DNA of 64,000 bases. Origin: Escherichia phage vB_EcoM_PHB13. A program made the translations under genes and the position numbers. The notes beneath the pieces were generated by a model, which saw only the letters and a program-made list of their open reading frames with translations, was not told where the DNA came from and did no database searches. Positions 20,928-34,715 of the stretch are shown here, piece by piece. How positions within the stretch are numbered: position 1 is the first letter of the stretch; every line of letters begins with the position of its first letter. Where the stretch lies: the sequence record MK573636. The stretch is one strand, 5' to 3'.

Positions 20928-21169
20928 AAAGAAAATTAATTAAACGAAATAAGGAATTTTTGAATAACTGCATTAAGGTTGCTAATGGTTGGCCTTTGTT
21001 CCTCTTCCTTTATGATTGGTATTCTAAACAATCGGTAGAGGAAACACGACACTATAAGAAGATCAGAAAAGAATCATATACAAAACAAGGCCGCATTAAC
21101 GGACTTTACTTAATGTGGCACGGCAAAGAACCTTCTAAAATCTGTGTTGGATTAAAGGGGCGTATATGA
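20924..21169 (+). CDS. hypothetical basic protein (81 aa)
   Basis: ATGA-coupled to neighbours. Confidence 0.45.
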   Translation: MKRKLIKRNKEFLNNCIKVANGWPLFLFLYDWYSKQSVEETRHYKKIRKESYTKQGRINGLYLMWHGKEPSKICVGLKGRI

Positions 21170-21882
21170 AACAAAAATTAATATTCTGCAACTTTGACGG
21201 ATCGGGGATAATGGGGCTAGAATGGGCTAAAGCAGGTCATAAGGTGATCTGCTTTAATGCAGATGATGCCGACCACGGCACATACAAAAAGTATAATACC
21301 CGATTTGAACATCCAAACATTACATATGTAAACACATGGATTGATTTGGATTGGCTGGAAAGAGCAATGGACCTTGAATGGGGAAAACCAGATATTATCT
21401 TTGCATTCCCACCGTGCACCAATTTAGCTGTTAGTGGCGCTGCACACTTTGAACGAAAGAAACGAGAACAAGGACCATTAATTCAAGTTCATGATGTAAG
21501 GGCAGCTAAAATAACCGCTTATTTGGGCGAATGGTTAGAAGTTCCCTACATGATAGAGAATCCTGTAAGCGTTATCTCTAGCATGTGGCGTAAGCCTGAT
21601 TACATGTTCCACCCGTGGGAATATGGCGGTTATTTGCCGGAATATGATATACATCCTACGTTTCCTGAGTATATTGCCTCCCGTGATATGTACCCGAAAA
21701 AGACTTGCTTATGGACGGGACAAGGTTTTATAATGCCAGAAAAGAAACCTATACCGATTAATAAAGGGTACAGTAAACAGCATTCTAAGCTAGGCGGGAA
21801 AGGAACCAGAACAAAGACTATCAGGTCACTTACCCCGCGAGGATTCGCAAAGGCAGTATTTGAAGCCAATAAGGATCTATGA
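21166..21882 (+). CDS. compact C5-cytosine methyltransferase-fold protein (variant motifs PCT / ENP)
   Basis: Motif I FDGSGIMG, motif IV FPPCTNLAVSG, motif VI ENPVSV, motif IX RSLTPRGFAKAV; only 238 aa. Confidence 0.55.
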   Translation: MKQKLIFCNFDGSGIMGLEWAKAGHKVICFNADDADHGTYKKYNTRFEHPNITYVNTWIDLDWLERAMDLEWGKPDIIFAFPPCTNLAVSGAAHFERKKREQGPLIQVHDVRAAKITAYLGEWLEVPYMIENPVSVISSMWRKPDYMFHPWEYGGYLPEYDIHPTFPEYIASRDMYPKKTCLWTGQGFIMPEKKPIPINKGYSKQHSKLGGKGTRTKTIRSLTPRGFAKAVFEANKDL

Positions 21883-22211
21883 TGGGATTGTTTAAGTATT
21901 CGCTAACGTCAAATTACGATAAACAAGGTCATTGCATCAGTTGCCCTGATTGTCGTAGCCATAACATCGAAAGCAAGATCACCGATCATATTGATGGACT
22001 TTGGTCGCCAGCAAGCGAGATAGAATACTATTGCGCTGATTGTGGAATTGTAGTAGCATATTGGGCATACGGATCATATGATCCTTACTTCCAGATGGGA
22101 GAGCGTTCAATCCCTGCTCTTATCTGGAGAATTAAGAACAATATCCGCCATTCATGGGATGAGTTCTTAAAAGATATTGATTTACGTGATGATCCATTCA
22201 GGAGACTATAA
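21879..22211 (+). CDS. zinc-ribbon protein (two CxxC pairs)
   Basis: CISCPDC and CADCG cysteine pairs; coupled to flanking genes. Confidence 0.45.
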   Translation: MMGLFKYSLTSNYDKQGHCISCPDCRSHNIESKITDHIDGLWSPASEIEYYCADCGIVVAYWAYGSYDPYFQMGERSIPALIWRIKNNIRHSWDEFLKDIDLRDDPFRRL

Positions 22212-22212
22212 C

Positions 22213-22731
22213 ATGAACCGTTTGACGCCTAAACGCCGTTACTATACCAATACTAAAAACTTTGTCATCTCTGTTTATGAGGCGTGGTTAGAAGATGGCT
22301 ATATCAACATGAACCCAGATTACCAGCGTCCTTTGGTATGGGACACCGAAAACAAACGTATGTTTATCGAAAACCTGATTAATGATTTTCCGGTTGGTGC
22401 TATCGCAATGGCTAAGATTGATGATGGCTCTCGCTATGAGATCGAAATCGTGGACGGTAAACAGCGTTTAAACGCAATATTCTCCTTTATGAAAGATGAG
22501 TTTAGCATTGCTGGTAATGATGATTCTATGTTGTATTACAGTGATTTTACGCCAGCAGAAAAGCGACGTTTTCGCAATCTCGGACTACCCGCGATCATGA
22601 TGGAAGAGAGCACACGAGAAGATCGATTAGAATATTTCTACAAAACAAACTTTTTCGGTGTGCCTCAATCAGAAGATCATCGCCAGCATGTGATTGCATT
22701 ATTGCAAGATGAGCAATTAAAAAATAACTAA
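22213..22731 (+). CDS. DUF262 / ParB-like (DGQQR-motif) domain protein
   Basis: DYQRPLVWD and DGKQRL motifs; start placed at ATG after SD GGAGA (track 22177). Confidence 0.5.
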   Translation: MNRLTPKRRYYTNTKNFVISVYEAWLEDGYINMNPDYQRPLVWDTENKRMFIENLINDFPVGAIAMAKIDDGSRYEIEIVDGKQRLNAIFSFMKDEFSIAGNDDSMLYYSDFTPAEKRRFRNLGLPAIMMEESTREDRLEYFYKTNFFGVPQSEDHRQHVIALLQDEQLKNN

Positions 22732-22738
22732 AAAGTTG

Positions 22739-22768
22739 TTGACAGGGGGATCGGTGATCCCCTATAAT
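22739..22768 (+). promoter_or_regulatory. PeSL early promoter TTGACA-GGGGGATCGGTGATCCCC-TATAAT
   Basis: Direct reading. Confidence 0.65.
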
Positions 22769-22804
22769 GCAAACATACCGAAACGAACTACTAAGGAGTA
22801 TCAA

Positions 22805-23017
22805 ATGGCTAACATCGAAATCATCATTACCGACGTAACTTATGACCGCATTAACGAAATCGGTACTGCTTTGCTAGAAGATGGAACAACTCGCACCATC
22901 AACTACGCAGAATACGTTGAAATGCGCGGTTGTATTAAACGAGTAGGAAAATATATCCTGATTGAAAAAGACTATTCAGGATACACATTAGAGCAATTGC
23001 TCGATGGTGCATTATAA
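22805..23017 (+). CDS. hypothetical early protein (70 aa)
   Basis: Start after PeSL SD; track start 22736 spans promoter and is rejected. Confidence 0.5.
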   Translation: MANIEIIITDVTYDRINEIGTALLEDGTTRTINYAEYVEMRGCIKRVGKYILIEKDYSGYTLEQLLDGAL

Positions 23018-23023
23018 TAAATT

Positions 23024-23046
23024 GGGGCGTTAAGCCCCCTTTTCAT
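23024..23046 (+). terminator. rho-independent terminator (GGGGC-GTTAA-GCCCC + TTTT)
   Basis: Same hairpin family as 19247. Confidence 0.65.
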
Positions 23047-23084
23047 AAATATAGGTTTATAGGTTATCAACTAGAGGATATAAA

Positions 23085-25136
23085 ATGTTTAACTTAGAAA
23101 TCGACGATCTAATGATTGAATCTTTCGAGAAATGGCTGTTGACGGAAGAGGAAGAAAACTTTGGCAGTATTGCTCCGGTACAGTGCTTAAAGCCTAAGCA
23201 GAATCCTAAACAGCTTTTTGCAGTACAGACACGCGATAAAGATGTGATTGTCCGTCTTTGTAACTTCACCAACAAAACACCTAAAATCATTCGTATGGGT
23301 GACAAGACCGCACATGTTGTACTGTGCGAAATGAACAAAAGCGGTCGTATTGTACAGCTTAAAAATGGTCTAGGCGATAACCCGATTGCAGTTATGGCAA
23401 GTGCTTTTGATGTGGTTATGGAAACAGCCCGTAAAGCGCAATTAGACGCTGTTATGTTCCGTTTTAACGTATCCCGCATGAAAGGTAAGACCGAACTGGT
23501 TAAGCGCGTTATAGAGCGTTTGGTGCGTCGTACACCGAAGTTTGAAGTATTCCAGCAGGAAGTAATGACCAGCAAAAAGATCGCTTTAGTTGTTGTCAAG
23601 CGTCGAGGTATGGCGATTGATAAGATTAAAGGGATTAAACTTGATGAATCCTTGTTCACTAAAGTAGAAAGTGATTTAGGTGATCGCTGGGTATCTAAAG
23701 CTACTGGCGAATCTCTGACTAAAGATGAAGCATATGCGGCTAGTCTTGTGTCAGAAGAAGAACGAAACGCGGAAGCAGAACAACGCGTAGCGGCTAAATC
23801 TCGTTTGACTAAAGAAGAAATGCTGAAAACTCAAGCGACCTATAACAGCGACTATGTGAATCATCCAGAAAAAATTAATCTTAAACCGGAAGAAGATATC
23901 ACCGAAGCAGAACCTAAGAAACAGTTTAATACTCTGATTGACCGTCAAGCCTTAGAACGTTCAACCGCCCGTTCTCTGAATGACTGGACAAGTGATATTA
24001 TCACTCGCTATGGTTTCATGCGTACTATTTTTGAAAGCGAAGCCGATGCAAAATACGCAGTAAGCGAACTGGTAAAAGTTCAGGACCAATATGATCCGTT
24101 GTCTGCGGAAGTTATCGCAGCATCAATCAAACGCTTAAAAGAAATCATGAGCGAGGAAGTATTCGAAAACAAGATCACTGCGTTGGCAATGGATCGAGTA
24201 GACCAGTCTATGCCAGCAGATGTAAAAGCTGAAATGCTGCGTAGTCATATCACACAGATTAAAACCGATGCCCTTCGTAATGTTGCCTCCGGTATGTTTG
24301 AAGCAATTGCAAGTAACATGGGTGAAATGATGGCAGATATTGATCTTGACCTACCAGGCGCGGAAGGTTTTGTGTTGAGCGAATATGCGGATGCAGCATA
24401 CATCAATATGAACAACTTCCTAACCGATCGTAAGCTGGATGAGTTCGAAGGGATCGCTGACCCAGAAGAATTGGTCAAGATGTGCGACGCACTGGATAAT
24501 GCCTTCGCTAACTATGGCGTTAAACTTGATCCGGGTACTATTCTGTATCGTGGTATGGACTTCCGGTCTCAAATGTGGGAAACTGCACGTAAGCAAAAAG
24601 CGTTTTACTTTAAAAACTATGTGAGCACTTCCCTTGCACCTAACATTTTTGGCGGCTGGAATGCAAACGTGGCTAGTGCCGTTGCTGGTGTTGATTCTAT
24701 GGCTGGCTCTCGCGGTGAAGGTGGCGCGAATGTTGCTTTCTCCATTGCTGGCGCGGAAAACATCCCTGTATTGCCAGTAGGTAACAAAGCATTTGCTTAC
24801 AAAGAATGCGAGATTTTACTTCCTCGCGGTGTTGTGTTATCCTTTGATACGGTAACTCGTGCTACGGCATCGACGGATTCACAAGAAACATATTACATTG
24901 AGGCACATATTATGAACAAAAGTGAACTGGCAGCATTACAAGAATCTGGCGAAATGATCGCGGATGGTGATGCATTCATCCGTGAAGGTGTTGTTAAACC
25001 TGCTTCTGACCTGTCTTTCTCCAGATTCATTACAGAAGCTAAAACCGAACGTAAGAAAGCAGATAAGGCAACTCTACGTCAGCTTATCGCTGATCTGGTG
25101 TCTGTAGACGCAATGCCAGATAAATTTAAAATGTAA
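23085..25136 (+). CDS. alt: Alt-like ADP-ribosyltransferase (virion-packaged in T4)
   Basis: 683 aa; matches to T4 Alt (FTKVESDLGD, FYFKNYVSTSLAPNIFGGW) and R-S-E ART triad (YRG, STS, ECEILLPRG). Confidence 0.8.
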   Translation: MFNLEIDDLMIESFEKWLLTEEEENFGSIAPVQCLKPKQNPKQLFAVQTRDKDVIVRLCNFTNKTPKIIRMGDKTAHVVLCEMNKSGRIVQLKNGLGDNPIAVMASAFDVVMETARKAQLDAVMFRFNVSRMKGKTELVKRVIERLVRRTPKFEVFQQEVMTSKKIALVVVKRRGMAIDKIKGIKLDESLFTKVESDLGDRWVSKATGESLTKDEAYAASLVSEEERNAEAEQRVAAKSRLTKEEMLKTQATYNSDYVNHPEKINLKPEEDITEAEPKKQFNTLIDRQALERSTARSLNDWTSDIITRYGFMRTIFESEADAKYAVSELVKVQDQYDPLSAEVIAASIKRLKEIMSEEVFENKITALAMDRVDQSMPADVKAEMLRSHITQIKTDALRNVASGMFEAIASNMGEMMADIDLDLPGAEGFVLSEYADAAYINMNNFLTDRKLDEFEGIADPEELVKMCDALDNAFANYGVKLDPGTILYRGMDFRSQMWETARKQKAFYFKNYVSTSLAPNIFGGWNANVASAVAGVDSMAGSRGEGGANVAFSIAGAENIPVLPVGNKAFAYKECEILLPRGVVLSFDTVTRATASTDSQETYYIEAHIMNKSELAALQESGEMIADGDAFIREGVVKPASDLSFSRFITEAKTERKKADKATLRQLIADLVSVDAMPDKFKM

Positions 25137-25153
25137 TTTTTAAGAAATAATGG

Positions 25154-25182
25154 TTGACTCAAACGGGGACTAGTTTTATACT
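25154..25182 (+). promoter_or_regulatory. promoter TTGACT-N17-TATACT overlapping alt terminator hairpin
   Basis: Direct reading; stem CGGGG(A)CTAG/CTAGCCCCG then TTTTCTG. Confidence 0.5.
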
Positions 25183-25214
25183 AGCCCCGTTTTCTGTTAT
25201 ATGGGAGGTTTAAA

Positions 25215-26039
25215 ATGTTCAAGAAATTACAGGATTTTCGTCTTTCAGAAGAATCACGCGAATCAATGATGGAACGTATGGATAATTACATCGAAACATA
25301 TGACATTGAGGGGATTAATGGTTACATGATCACTGAGATGATCAGCGATCAGATTAACTTTGATGATTATGTGAAGGTTATCCGCTTCCTTGAGCGTGAG
25401 ACACAAGATTATGGATTTGTCAAGAAAATCATTAATGTGATGTATGAAGTACACTCCGAAGACTTTGGAGATAATGTATTCAAACATTACAAACATAACA
25501 ACATAACCCCAGCAGAATATAATGCAATCTGTGATTATGTGTCTGAACAATACGAATGGGTAAATGGTGCTCTCTTAGGGGAAGAAGACATGACCGATGA
25601 GATATCAGAGATTGTTGATTTGATGGATTGCGCCATGGATAAAACCGAAAAGTTAAACGGTACTCTTTATCGCGGTCAACATCTTGACATTCAGACAATA
25701 GAGCGTATTATTGAAGATAAGGAATTTACCTTTAAAAACTTTGTGTCAACCAGCATGACACCGATCATCTTTGGAGGCTGGCTATCAAACAGCACTAGCC
25801 TTTATTGTGAGAATCGATATGAATCCATGACCGGAAAGATGCAACATTCTTGTAATGTATCGTGGGTAATTGACGTAAAAGATCATAAAGGTTTTGTTGT
25901 TGGGTCAATTGCATGGAATCCTTGCGAATGTGAAGTAATTTTACCGCGCGGGACTTGCGTCAAGGTAAACGACGTAGTAGAATCTTTCGGTGATGAGAAT
26001 CGTAGACAATTTACAATTTTCGGTGAGGTGACTAAATGA
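25215..26039 (+). CDS. ADP-ribosyltransferase, short Alt/Mod-like paralog
   Basis: R-S-E motifs LYRGQ, FTFKNFVSTSMTPIIFGGW, CECEVILPRG; 274 aa. Confidence 0.7.
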   Translation: MFKKLQDFRLSEESRESMMERMDNYIETYDIEGINGYMITEMISDQINFDDYVKVIRFLERETQDYGFVKKIINVMYEVHSEDFGDNVFKHYKHNNITPAEYNAICDYVSEQYEWVNGALLGEEDMTDEISEIVDLMDCAMDKTEKLNGTLYRGQHLDIQTIERIIEDKEFTFKNFVSTSMTPIIFGGWLSNSTSLYCENRYESMTGKMQHSCNVSWVIDVKDHKGFVVGSIAWNPCECEVILPRGTCVKVNDVVESFGDENRRQFTIFGEVTK

Positions 26040-26548
26040 AAATGATTAAACTGATTGGTCTTGCGGCTTTAGTGGCTATGCTTAATGGGTGCGCTGTGCA
26101 TGATCTGGCACTTGCATCTAAGAATACACACGAGTTTGTACGGTCATGTGAACGATGGCAGAAAGAGTCACGTTTTCCATTTAATAGCGTTGAAGATTGC
26201 GTGATTGACTACCTTGAAAAGAAAGACGCCTCATTACAGCGTTTAGGTCGTCAACCGGAATCAGCAGAACAGATCGCAAAGATTAAGGCAGATAAAGAAG
26301 CAGAGAAGAAACGCATTTACGAATATTATTATGGTCATGAAAATTCAATTGAAGAAATGAATCGCAAAGCAATGGAAGATGCCGACCGTCGTAGAAAATT
26401 TGGAGTATGTGTAATCGGGACGGAAGCAGCATATCAAGATGATCTTTCGGCTGCATATGAGGAAGGGGATTATGAAAAACTTCAATTGCTACAATCAAAA
26501 CAGTATCGCTATAAACTACGCAAACAATGTGATGATTTAATCAAATAA
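26036..26548 (+). CDS. putative lipoprotein
   Basis: Signal peptide with lipobox LNG-C (MKMIKLIGLAALVAMLNGC); start overlaps previous stop. Confidence 0.55.
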   Translation: MKMIKLIGLAALVAMLNGCAVHDLALASKNTHEFVRSCERWQKESRFPFNSVEDCVIDYLEKKDASLQRLGRQPESAEQIAKIKADKEAEKKRIYEYYYGHENSIEEMNRKAMEDADRRRKFGVCVIGTEAAYQDDLSAAYEEGDYEKLQLLQSKQYRYKLRKQCDDLIK

Positions 26549-26550
26549 AA

Positions 26551-26575
26551 GGCGGGGATTATCCCCGCCTTTCGC
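26551..26575. terminator. bidirectional terminator hairpin (GGCGGGG-ATTAT-CCCCGCC) between convergent genes
   Basis: Sits between stops of 26036-26548 (+) and gp54 (-). Confidence 0.6.
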
Positions 26576-34478: not shown

Positions 34479-34715
34479 TTAAAAATCCTCTTCTGGCTCC
34501 TCTTCTGGCTCGTTGTCGGCCTCCAATTGCTTACGGCGTCCAGCGATGGCATCACGGATCGAAATATCATCAGCAGGTTTCAATTCTGTTTCTTTCTTGC
34601 GCTTCTCATAATATGCCTCAAGTTCATTTAATCCCTCGATAGTATTACAAGAATAAATCTTACTCATGAAACCGTCAATAGCGGCCTCAACCAAAAAACG
34701 TTTAAAGCTAATCAT
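34479..34715 (-). CDS. uvsW.1: UvsW.1-like small acidic protein
   Basis: 78 aa immediately downstream of uvsW as in T4; acidic C-terminus. Confidence 0.6.
   Translation of the reverse strand: MISFKRFLVEAAIDGFMSKIYSCNTIEGLNELEAYYEKRKKETELKPADDISIRDAIAGRRKQLEADNEPEEEPEEDF

Follow-up and report, generated by a model that had tools for sequence, protein, structure and literature searches.

In T4-type infection, phage ADP-ribosyltransferases (ARTs) are the earliest of the host-takeover enzymes at work, and almost all knowledge about them comes from T4 Alt, ModA, and ModB. T4 Alt is a packaged and injected NAD+:arginine ART of 682 aa that gp21 processes at the C-terminus as well as at the N-terminus, from which a segment is cut off (PMC9026906). 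ModA and ModB (~200 aa) are small, stand-alone R-S-E ARTs that are expressed early and encoded beside srd. Furthermore, tandem alt paralogs occupy the equivalent locus in RB27 ('alt.-2'), T4 (alt.-1/alt.-2), 44RR (ORF187c/188c), Acinetobacter phage ZZ1, and Citrobacter phage CF1. Free C-terminal ART ORFs arise from such paralogs; the ZZ1 case is named 'split RNA polymerase ADP-ribosylase'. For RB49, the short gene RB49p183 carries the RefSeq label "similar to C-terminal part of T4 Alt", and Nolan et al. 2006 include it as a paralog that arose by duplication of alt. The discovery of the pair is therefore a minor one, as the two genes and their paralogy are already known and have been annotated since 2003-2006. 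We add the exact extent of the short protein within Alt, the age and conservation of its family, and the promoter and terminator layout.

The window, i.e., the whole stretch of 64,000 nt that was analyzed, comes from a Krischvirus, an RB49-like member of the T4-like coliphages. Two ORFs on the plus strand, separated by a spacer of 78 bp, encode proteins of 683 and 274 aa (Table 1). A reading of the sequence alone had proposed a tandem pair of ARTs at this site, composed of a full-length Alt and a shorter, divergent paralog. Both ORFs were recovered at exactly the proposed coordinates, both products match PF03496 (36.1 bits for Alt and 62.8 bits for the short ART; gathering cutoff 23.4), and the quoted YRG, STS, and ExE motifs were seen in both. 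The sequence-only reading had missed the earlier annotation and publication of the pair, as well as the absence of the ~70-aa Alt tail from the short protein and the putative promoter of its own.

Table 1. Features of the alt/short-ART locus and its flanks (positions refer to the window).
Feature	Position	Strand	Description
Intrinsic-terminator-like hairpin, GGGGCGTTAAGCCCC + CTTTT	23024..23043	+	Terminator scan; closes the upstream PeSL/ORFan cassette
Late-promoter-like box, CATAAATA	23044..23051	+	33 nt before the alt ATG; putative late promoter
alt, full-length Alt ortholog, 683 aa	23085..25136	+	98.8% identity to cluster representative P0017; RB49p184 annotated alt
Alt N-terminal domain, aa 1-343	23085..24113	+	HMM coordinates; missing from the short paralog; includes the segment cut off by gp21 in T4
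Alt ART module, aa 344-612	24114..24920	+	Homologous over the entire short paralog
Alt C-terminal tail, aa 613-683 (...DGD...MPDKFKM)	24921..25133	+	Alignment; kept in full-length Alts, absent from the short family
PeSL-type cassette	25137..25214	+	AT-rich stretch after the alt stop, promoter, stem-loop, Shine-Dalgarno
PeSL -35, TTGACT	25154-25159	+	
PeSL stem-loop	25161-25192	+	Overlaps the -10 box; followed by a T-run
PeSL -10, TATACT	25177-25182	+	
Shine-Dalgarno of the short ART, GGGAGG	25203-25208	+	
Short Alt-core ADP-ribosyltransferase, 274 aa	25215..26039	+	RB49p183, phrog_15144
Short-ART triad: R153; S178-T179-S180; E238/E240	25671-25673; 25746-25754; 25926-25934	+	
Lipoprotein-like ORF (MKMIKLIGLAALVAMLNGC...), 170 aa	26036..26548	+	phrog_16112, unknown function
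Bidirectional intrinsic terminator	26547..26573	both	12 pairs in terminator scan; both strands annotated in GEC-3S

The 683-aa protein, the ortholog of T4 Alt, aligns collinearly with it over ~650 aa (27% identity, E 5e-61), matches the Alt-like phrog_802 of PHROG (E 3e-179), and carries the same motifs, i.e., LYRG (aa 487-490), FYFKNYVSTS (507-516), and ECEILLPRG (574-582), with the triad R489, S514-T515-S516, and E574/E576. In addition to full-length collinearity, it shows the C-terminal tail and PF26846 (Tevenvirinae_ADPRT) that go with T4 Alt orthologs; the PF26846 assignment rests on precomputed annotations for P0017 and the Alt proteins of relatives, and the local Pfam scan gave no PF26846 for Alt. 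As in T4, the gene adjoins genes 54 and 48, and the same arrangement of a terminator-like hairpin and a putative late box precedes it. The upstream hairpin, at which the GEC-3S authors also annotated a terminator, may act in a terminator-like manner and insulate alt from early transcription. The equivalent box directly after the hairpin reads TATAAATA in T4 and RB27 and AATAAATA in L005, a relative, and the layout of a hairpin followed by a putative late promoter is common to these three phages. According to Nolan 2006, the first T of the late box is poorly conserved outside T4, where A/T is common; the box of the window differs from this by starting with C.

The 274-aa protein is, judged by profile, conserved triad, and predicted fold, a member of the R-S-E mono-ADP-ribosyltransferase family. 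Besides PF03496, it matches phrog_15144, annotated as 'ADP-ribosyltransferase' in PHROG (E 1e-197). Its motifs are LYRG (151-154), FTFKNFVSTS (171-180), and ECEVILPRG (238-246); R153, S178-T179-S180, E238, and E240 are invariant in an alignment of 46 sequences (short-ART numbering). As the sequence-only reading had anticipated, the triad falls on the catalytic positions, its columns corresponding one for one to LYRS, FVSTS, and EMEVILPRG of T4 Alt. The AF2 model (pLDDT 92.5) places R153 in strand 150-158, STS at the end of strand 177-180, and E240 at the opening of strand 240-243. When compared to solved structures with Foldseek, the model matched Vis (4XZK), C3bot2, Certhrax, CDTa, and iota-Ia with a probability of 1.00, E-values down to 7e-11, and 208-227 aligned columns. 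These C3-like and binary-toxin ARTs (PF03496) have the same fold as the short ART, with a helical sub-domain at the N-terminus and an active site of R / STS / ExE type; however, identity to them is just 14-21%, and they are toxins secreted by bacteria, whereas the short ART is an intracellular enzyme encoded by a phage. Sequence searches of the PDB returned Tre1 and Vis as best matches of the short ART (E 0.03-0.16), no solved match for Alt, and no solved Alt or Mod relative for either protein. The E-x-E motif suggests that the short ART is specific for arginine. Its family has an invariant W234-N235 in the ARTT loop, compared to AFAYK in the neighboring Alt, and this family-specific loop may hint at the distinct target that the sequence-only reading had suggested.

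The short ART descends from Alt rather than from Mod, as indicated by both sequence and model. Alt and the short ART share 37% identity over 109 aa in BLASTP (E 1e-16), a similarity well above chance. On an HMM built from full-length Alts only, residues 14-269 of the short ART lined up in collinear order with Alt positions 337-624 (of 693; E 1e-47); the first ~90 aa alone showed a marginal sequence similarity to the Alt HMM (E ~1e-3). Identity to any Alt core is 23-26%. The AF2 model superimposes over almost its whole length on the C-terminal half of predicted Alts (SP18 Alt: TMq 0.80, rmsd 3.7 Å). Because of this HMM alignment and the superposition, the N-terminal helices are to be assigned to the Alt/C3-like ART module, of which they form the helical part, and are not foreign, and the "different N-terminal region" that had been ascribed to the protein could not be upheld. 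The short ART thus has the ART module in common with T4 Alt and lacks the ~335-aa N-terminal domain and the ~70-aa C-terminal tail, i.e., it is not collinear with T4 Alt over the full length. Its top 50 BFVD matches contain no Mod, and the best of them are Alt and split-Alt proteins. The Mod HMM did not match the short ART, nor did the Alt-core HMM match Mod proteins. An alignment with ModA and ModB, proposed as a check by the sequence-only reading, gave corresponding triad positions (R73, S99, and E171/E173 of T4 ModB to R153, STS, and E238/E240), but the overall profile match to a Mod-only alignment was weak and not significant (hhalign, E 0.056). The genes also differ in position, as ModA and ModB sit beside srd and the short ART beside alt.

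In RB49, the srd-adjacent site is held by RB49p014 ('modB'), a syntenic ModB-like gene (33% identity to ModB, E 8e-11). In the complete RB49-type genome, HMM scans revealed exactly three ARTs, of which only RB49p014 was matched by the Mod HMM. We therefore rejected the strong form of the idea that the short ART stands in for missing mod genes. The Krischvirus short family also differs from the C-terminal pieces of split alts, which keep the Alt tail (P0007), overlap an ORF for the N-terminal half, and group with full-length Alt clades (P0109); the short family, in contrast, forms a separate long-branch clade and has neither an N-terminal-half ORF nor the tail, but a putative promoter of its own.

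Upstream of the short ART, the spacer has no late box of the TATAAATA type and contains a putative sigma-70 promoter instead (10/12 consensus match in the promoter scan). A PeSL subclass in which the stem-loop overlaps the -10 box was described by Arbiol 2010 (PMC2839356), and the spacer has this anatomy, with sigma-70 boxes, an AT-rich upstream stretch, a stem-loop, and flanking stop, Shine-Dalgarno, and start elements. Promoter and terminator activity was demonstrated in that study for PeSLs 211/210, 206/205, and 193/192, i.e., others than the one preceding the short ART. The predicted fold has a free energy of -20.9 kcal/mol (z -2.8), and the element belongs to the same family as seven further PeSLs within the window. 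In L005-L007, the spacer is nearly invariant and changes in the stem preserve pairing, with flanking proteins being ~45% identical. The GEC-3S authors independently annotated a promoter at this spacer, plus terminators.

From these data, we lean towards a reading in which two R-S-E mono-ARTs of the Alt lineage are divided by timing, with a late-made, injected Alt and an early, unpackaged short ART. Searches of the literature yielded no data on expression, virion proteins, or enzyme activity in any Krischvirus. Alt would be synthesized late from the ATAAATA-type promoter and loaded into the prohead via regions outside its catalytic module. After trimming by the prohead protease, it would be injected along with the DNA and would ADP-ribosylate host proteins on arginine. 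The short ART would have derived long ago from a second alt copy, of which it kept the ART module only (Alt ~337-624), both the N-terminal domain and the C-terminal tail being lost, and it would have come to lie under the PeSL cassette. The PeSL hairpin would stop read-through from alt, and the putative sigma-70 promoter would be used by the host polymerase immediately after infection, so that the short ART would be made early and remain unpackaged. Its early transcripts would begin ~7 nt past the -10 box and should escape termination because the 5' arm of the hairpin is missing from them; a leaky hairpin may lead to late synthesis of the short ART as well. Most likely, the short ART is an early-made, non-packaged arginine mono-ART beside injected Alt and a single ModB-like Mod. 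Made de novo, it would mono-ADP-ribosylate host arginines using NAD+, and it would resemble T4 ModA and ModB in timing and Alt by descent.

The short-ART ORF is present and intact in 58 of 58 Krischvirus records. In a midpoint-rooted neighbor-joining tree, in which the deep position of the clade may shift, the family is monophyletic, with 100% bootstrap for its clade, and falls outside every Alt clade. The family is old, and in relatives with 44-46% identity, alt is likewise followed by the short ART, the lipoprotein ORF, and gp54. Given this clade, the kept gene order, and the presence in all 58 records, the function of the short ART appears to be maintained. It is very improbable that the gene has no function of its own and is decaying after an alt duplication in the manner of T4 alt.-1/alt.-2. 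Second alt copies do decay: T4 alt.-1/alt.-2 are annotated as remnants of duplication, and the second copies of L009 (273+415 aa) and Citrobacter phage CF1 (392+315 aa) are split at different points; RB27 retains two full-length alt copies. In addition to the intact ORF in all records, the short family keeps equal length and 72 invariant columns, complete triad included, down to 44% identity, and the divergence between the window and L005 is no greater than that of the neighboring Alt core (46% vs 42% identity). The confidently predicted fold and the conserved putative promoter and Shine-Dalgarno sequence of its own likewise argue against decay.

We also consider it quite unlikely that the short ART, like Alt, is packaged and injected, with a CTS-like leader that ends in L-S-E and is cleaved by gp21 like T4 internal proteins. 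A CTS is able to bring diverse proteins into T4-type heads (PMC9026906), and the N-terminus of the short ART, MFKKLQDFRLSE/ES (slash, gp21-type cut), loosely resembles MKTYQEFIAE/A of T4 IPII/IPIII and contains an [L/I]-x-E site of the gp21 type. Such a site lies within the first 13 residues of five of the six short-family members, and a weak PHROG match links the protein to phrog_595, a 'head maturation protease' family with an ART-like region (E 2e-5). However, [L/I]-x-E is seen in the first 13 aa of 7-8% of all ORFs, and conservation within the short family is lowest in the leader, which is absent from other Krischvirus ORFs. Since the best CTS look-alike in the genome, MISFKRFLVE/AA (34479-34715), is UvsW.1 and no head protein, the resemblance probably arises by chance; the only other close look-alike, gp61.1, is no head protein either, and we discarded the CTS idea as uninformative. 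Packaging would also be at odds with the putative sigma-70 early promoter and terminator that precede the gene instead of a late promoter, and with the loss of both termini that gp21 processes in T4 Alt (PMC9026906). Somewhat different is the view that the short ART acts early, but mainly as an NAD glycohydrolase, on a non-protein substrate, or as an NAD-capped-RNA transferase, and not as a protein-arginine ART in the manner of Alt and ModA. Acceptors vary widely among R-S-E enzymes, the ARTT loop is specific to the short family, and T4 ModB is reported to accept NAD-capped RNA (PMC10468400). This view appears rather unlikely, as the nearest relatives are Alt proteins, the sequence of the short ART bears no sign of nucleic-acid binding, and E-x-E together with the closest solved structures (Vis, iota-Ia, and CDTa) is typical of enzymes specific for protein or guanidino arginine.

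Tentatively, and with considerable doubt, Krischviruses could reach the ART set of T4 (one injected, two early) in another way, i.e., with one ModB-like Mod, no ModA, and a duplicated alt that yielded a free early Alt core; this core would take over the ModA job, i.e., complete the ADP-ribosylation of RNA polymerase alpha, or address a new host or anti-defence target via its family-specific ARTT loop. On this reading, T4-type phages would have a third functional class of ART, one that descends from Alt and is deployed like Mod. The RB49-type pair may be viewed as a natural experiment, with one catalytic module bearing packaging and processing regions under putative late control and one stripped and putatively early, and it could help to define the capsid targeting of Alt and the change in target range of ARTs after duplication. 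In T4-like phages, alt has repeatedly been duplicated, split, and truncated, which marks the locus as a hotspot of host-interaction evolution.

Regarding the downstream gene, the start of the lipoprotein-like ORF overlaps the stop of the short ART (ATGA), and the two are therefore probably co-transcribed and translationally coupled. A homolog follows the short ART in L005-L007 and RB49. The bidirectional terminator ends this short-ART/lipoprotein unit as well as the gene 54 unit, which is convergent with it.

The two tandem ADP-ribosyltransferase (ART) ORFs proposed by the sequence-only reading are present, lie on the same strand 78 bp apart, and carry the quoted motifs (Alt: LYRG 487–490, FYFKNYVSTS 507–516, ECEILLPRG 574–582; short ART: LYRG 151–154, FTFKNFVSTS 171–180, ECEVILPRG 238–246). 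Their similarity is far above chance (pairwise protein comparison: 37% identity, 109 aa, E 1e-16), and both exceeded the Pfam gathering threshold for PF03496. PHROG 802 ('Alt-like RNA polymerase ADP-ribosyltransferase') spans Alt entirely (E 3e-179), and PHROG 15144 ('ADP-ribosyltransferase') covers the full short ART (E 1e-197). T4 Alt is collinear with the 683-aa protein over ~650 residues (27% identity, E 5e-61), which supports its description as a full-length Alt. We regard the tandem as real, and the assignment, Alt together with a short ART derived from it, as secure, with hardly any room for doubt. The region is 95–99% identical to 58 Krischvirus genomes (RB49, phi1, GEC-3S, and others), and, as in T4, the next genes are 54 and 48, on the other strand. 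In RefSeq, RB49p184 is labelled alt, and RB49p183 carries the description 'ADP-ribosyltransferase; similar to C-terminal part of T4 Alt protein'. RB49ORF183c, 44RRORF188c, and T4 alt.-1/alt.-2 were described as paralogous duplications of the neighbouring alt (Nolan et al. 2006, PMC1524935). The pair is therefore already known from annotation and published comparative genomics, as well as from its PHROG family; a functional study on this gene pair was not found in the literature.

Table. Coordinates of the alt/short ART locus and of other features discussed (PeSL, intergenic sigma-70 promoter plus stem-loop cassette of RB49-type phages)
Feature	Position	Strand	Remarks
PeSLs, canonical (n = 7)	3689, 15566, 15959, 17103, 20362, 20607, 22739	+	all in the window
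Methylase-like ORF	21166–21882	+	238 aa
DUF262 ORF	22177–22731	+	184 aa
ORF	22736–23017		as listed, begins within PeSL promoter; from sequence, true start probably Met23 (~22802), agreeing with phrog_10679
Hairpin terminator	23024–23043		5' of alt
Late-box-like CATAAATA	23044–23051		directly 3' of terminator hairpin, upstream of alt
alt	23085–25136	+	683 aa; ORF list
alt stop codon	start of 78-bp spacer		within AT-rich stretch
-35 box TTGACT	25154–25159		78-bp spacer
Stem-loop, 13 pairs	25161–25192		overlaps -10 box, runs into T-tract
-10 box TATACT	25177–25182		78-bp spacer
Shine-Dalgarno GGGAGG	after stem-loop		before short ART ATG
Short ART	25215–26039	+	274 aa; ORF list
Lipoprotein-like ORF	26036–26548		170 aa; start overlaps short ART stop (ATGA)
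Bidirectional terminator	26547–26573		3' end of lipoprotein-like ORF
UvsW.1	34479–34715	-	78 aa; phrog_1143

In 13- and 46-sequence alignments, R153, S178-T179-S180, E238, E240, and L243-P244-R245 of the short ART were invariant and aligned with LYRS / FVSTS / EMEVILPRG of T4 Alt, confirming the proposed R-S-E triad. An HMM built from full-length Alts only matched Alt positions 337–624 of 693 to short ART residues 14–269 (E 1e-47); taken by themselves, residues 1–100 were also collinear, with only marginal similarity (E ~1e-3). A confident AlphaFold2 model based on the 46-sequence alignment (pLDDT 92.5, pTM 0.89) placed R153 on strand 150–158 and STS at the end of strand 177–180, with E240 opening strand 240–243. 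The closest solved structures, Vis, C3bot, Certhrax, CDTa, and iota-Ia (probability 1.0, ~210–225 aligned columns), are arginine-specific or C3-like mono-ARTs, whose fold the short ART resembles. Among predicted viral structures, the top non-self matches were Alt and 'split RNA polymerase ADP-ribosylase' proteins, with SP18 Alt superimposing at TMq 0.80 and an rmsd of 3.7 Å; ModA and ModB were absent from the top 50. HMM collinearity and predicted fold therefore identify the short ART as the Alt ART module with its helical N-terminal sub-domain included, and the 'different N-terminal region' previously attributed to it does not hold. Compared to Alt, it lacks the ~335-aa N-terminal domain and the ~70-aa C-terminal tail (...DGD...KF-KM).

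The short ART family in the database is small (272–288 aa, 44–99% identity), with 72 invariant columns, among which are all triad residues and an ARTT loop (W234-N235) specific to this family. An NJ tree with bootstrapping, computed on the ART core common to both proteins, recovered the family as monophyletic (100%) on a long branch, outside all full-length Alt clades, among them the Krischvirus Alt clade (100%). As it is also equally distant from the neighbouring Alt and from T4 Alt (23–26% identity), the paralog is divergent, as proposed, and its split from Alt is old rather than a recent copying. In other phages, alt has repeatedly acquired a second copy: RB27 has two full-length copies, T4 keeps the alt.-1/alt.-2 fragments, and the second copy is split in a Tequatrovirus-like metagenomic phage (273 + 415 aa, L009:5183–7248) and in Citrobacter phage CF1 (392 + 315 aa, L016:3826–5948). 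In the latter two, N- and C-terminal ORFs overlap at stop and start; as the break points differ, the disruptions are independent, and frameshifting or sequencing error is possible. The gene at the alt position is also split in another compared region (L008), and Acinetobacter phages carry Alts annotated as 'split'.

Regarding regulation, T4 and RB27 have an equivalent hairpin upstream of alt, followed by TATAAATA, and in L005, a distant relative, AATAAATA comes after a hairpin. Outside T4, the leading T of the late box shows little conservation (Nolan 2006, PMC1524935). These elements suggest late transcription of alt, which agrees with T4 Alt being a prohead-core protein (~40 copies) trimmed at both termini by the prohead protease gp21 (PMC9958956; PMC9026906). 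The 78-bp spacer, judged by its sequence, has PeSL anatomy of the subclass in which the stem-loop overlaps the -10 box, known from RB49/phi1; strong promoter and terminator activity was demonstrated for other PeSLs (Arbiol et al. 2010, PMC2839356). Between the window phage and three metagenomic relatives (L005–L007) the spacer hardly varies, with stem pairing preserved across base changes, whereas the flanking proteins are only ~45% identical. An independent annotation by the GEC-3S authors places a terminator ahead of alt, a promoter in the interval separating alt from the short gene, and a bidirectional terminator past the third gene. The spacer hairpin may stop transcripts arriving from alt; since the -10 box lies inside it, transcripts initiated ~7 nt past this box would begin without the 5' arm and so escape termination.

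Whole-genome HMM scans revealed exactly three ARTs in the RB49-type genome, Alt, the short ART, and Mod; T4 likewise has three, Alt, ModA, and ModB (PMC10468400). In contrast to T4, the third Krischvirus ART stems from Alt and not from Mod duplication. The single Krischvirus Mod, RB49p014 (167 aa, RB49 L011:8917–9420, outside the window), carries LYRG and E-R-E motifs, falls ~40 aa short of its T4 counterparts in length, and is nearer to ModB (33% identity, E 8e-11) than to ModA (23%, E 2e-6), which has no counterpart in Krischviruses. A role of the short ART as replacement for missing mod genes was ruled out, as RB49 does carry a mod gene, RB49p014, next to srd.

We moderately favor a temporal division of labor, in which Alt would be produced late, packaged, and injected, and the short Alt core would be expressed early by the PeSL promoter, stay unpackaged, and, as an arginine mono-ART, modify host proteins alongside the ModB-like enzyme. 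The pair would be of greater interest if the short enzyme substitutes for ModA or has a new target. Packaging of the short ART into the head is unlikely: its N-terminus, MFKKLQDFRLSE/ES, contains an L-x-E of the gp21 type and bears a loose resemblance to the capsid-targeting sequence (CTS) of T4, MKTYQEFIAE, but this leader varies within the family, [L/I]-x-E occurs in the first 13 residues of 7–8% of ORFs, and the nearest CTS look-alike in the genome belongs to UvsW.1, which is no head protein. The UvsW.1 leader (MISFKRFLVE/AA) is nearly that of T4 internal proteins (MKTYQEFIAE/A), although UvsW.1 is replication/repair-associated; this likeness is probably coincidence and cautions against inferring CTS function from leader motifs. 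A decaying remnant is likewise disfavored, since in L005–L007 alt (668 aa) is likewise followed by the short ART (275 aa; 44–46% identity to that of the window), a ~159-aa ORF, gp54, and gp48, the gene is intact in all 58 Krischvirus records, and divergence between the window and L005 is equal for the short ART (46% identity) and for the Alt core (42%).

Regarding the neighborhood, the seven canonical PeSLs are near-identical (AAAAAGTTG-TTGACA-GGGGA..TCCCC-TATAAT-ACACACAT), with a G/C stem between perfect or near-perfect sigma-70 boxes, and mark the hyperplastic early region that precedes alt. RB49 has an additional PeSL+ORFan cassette (RB49p186) there, absent in the window phage (22739–23043 versus L001:3087–3311); its junction lies in repeated PeSL sequence (window 22764–22787 matches RB49 at two sites), the pattern expected if modules are shuffled through their PeSLs. 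T4 IPI inhibits the type IV restriction endonuclease GmrSD, which makes half a GmrSD on a phage curious: the 184-aa ORF matches only its N-terminal (DUF262) domain (PF03235, E 5e-20). Upstream of it, beyond a 110-aa ORF, the 238-aa ORF weakly matches C5-cytosine methylases (RB49 label 'DNA methyltransferase'). The lipoprotein-like ORF, which is coupled to that of the short ART, is hypervariable: blastn gives no match in RB49 for its body (26088–26532), although the adjoining sequence matches at ~97% identity, and the protein shares only 33% identity with RB49 (L001:6581–7066) and 25% with L005 (L005:6828–7307), retaining the signal peptide, lipobox Cys, and one C-terminal Cys. Alignment coverage was 98–100% in 3 of the listed records and only 88–89% in 23, and Krischviruses appear to carry two alleles. 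A protein that acts in superinfection exclusion or interacts with the envelope, and that is under diversifying selection, is one possible reading.
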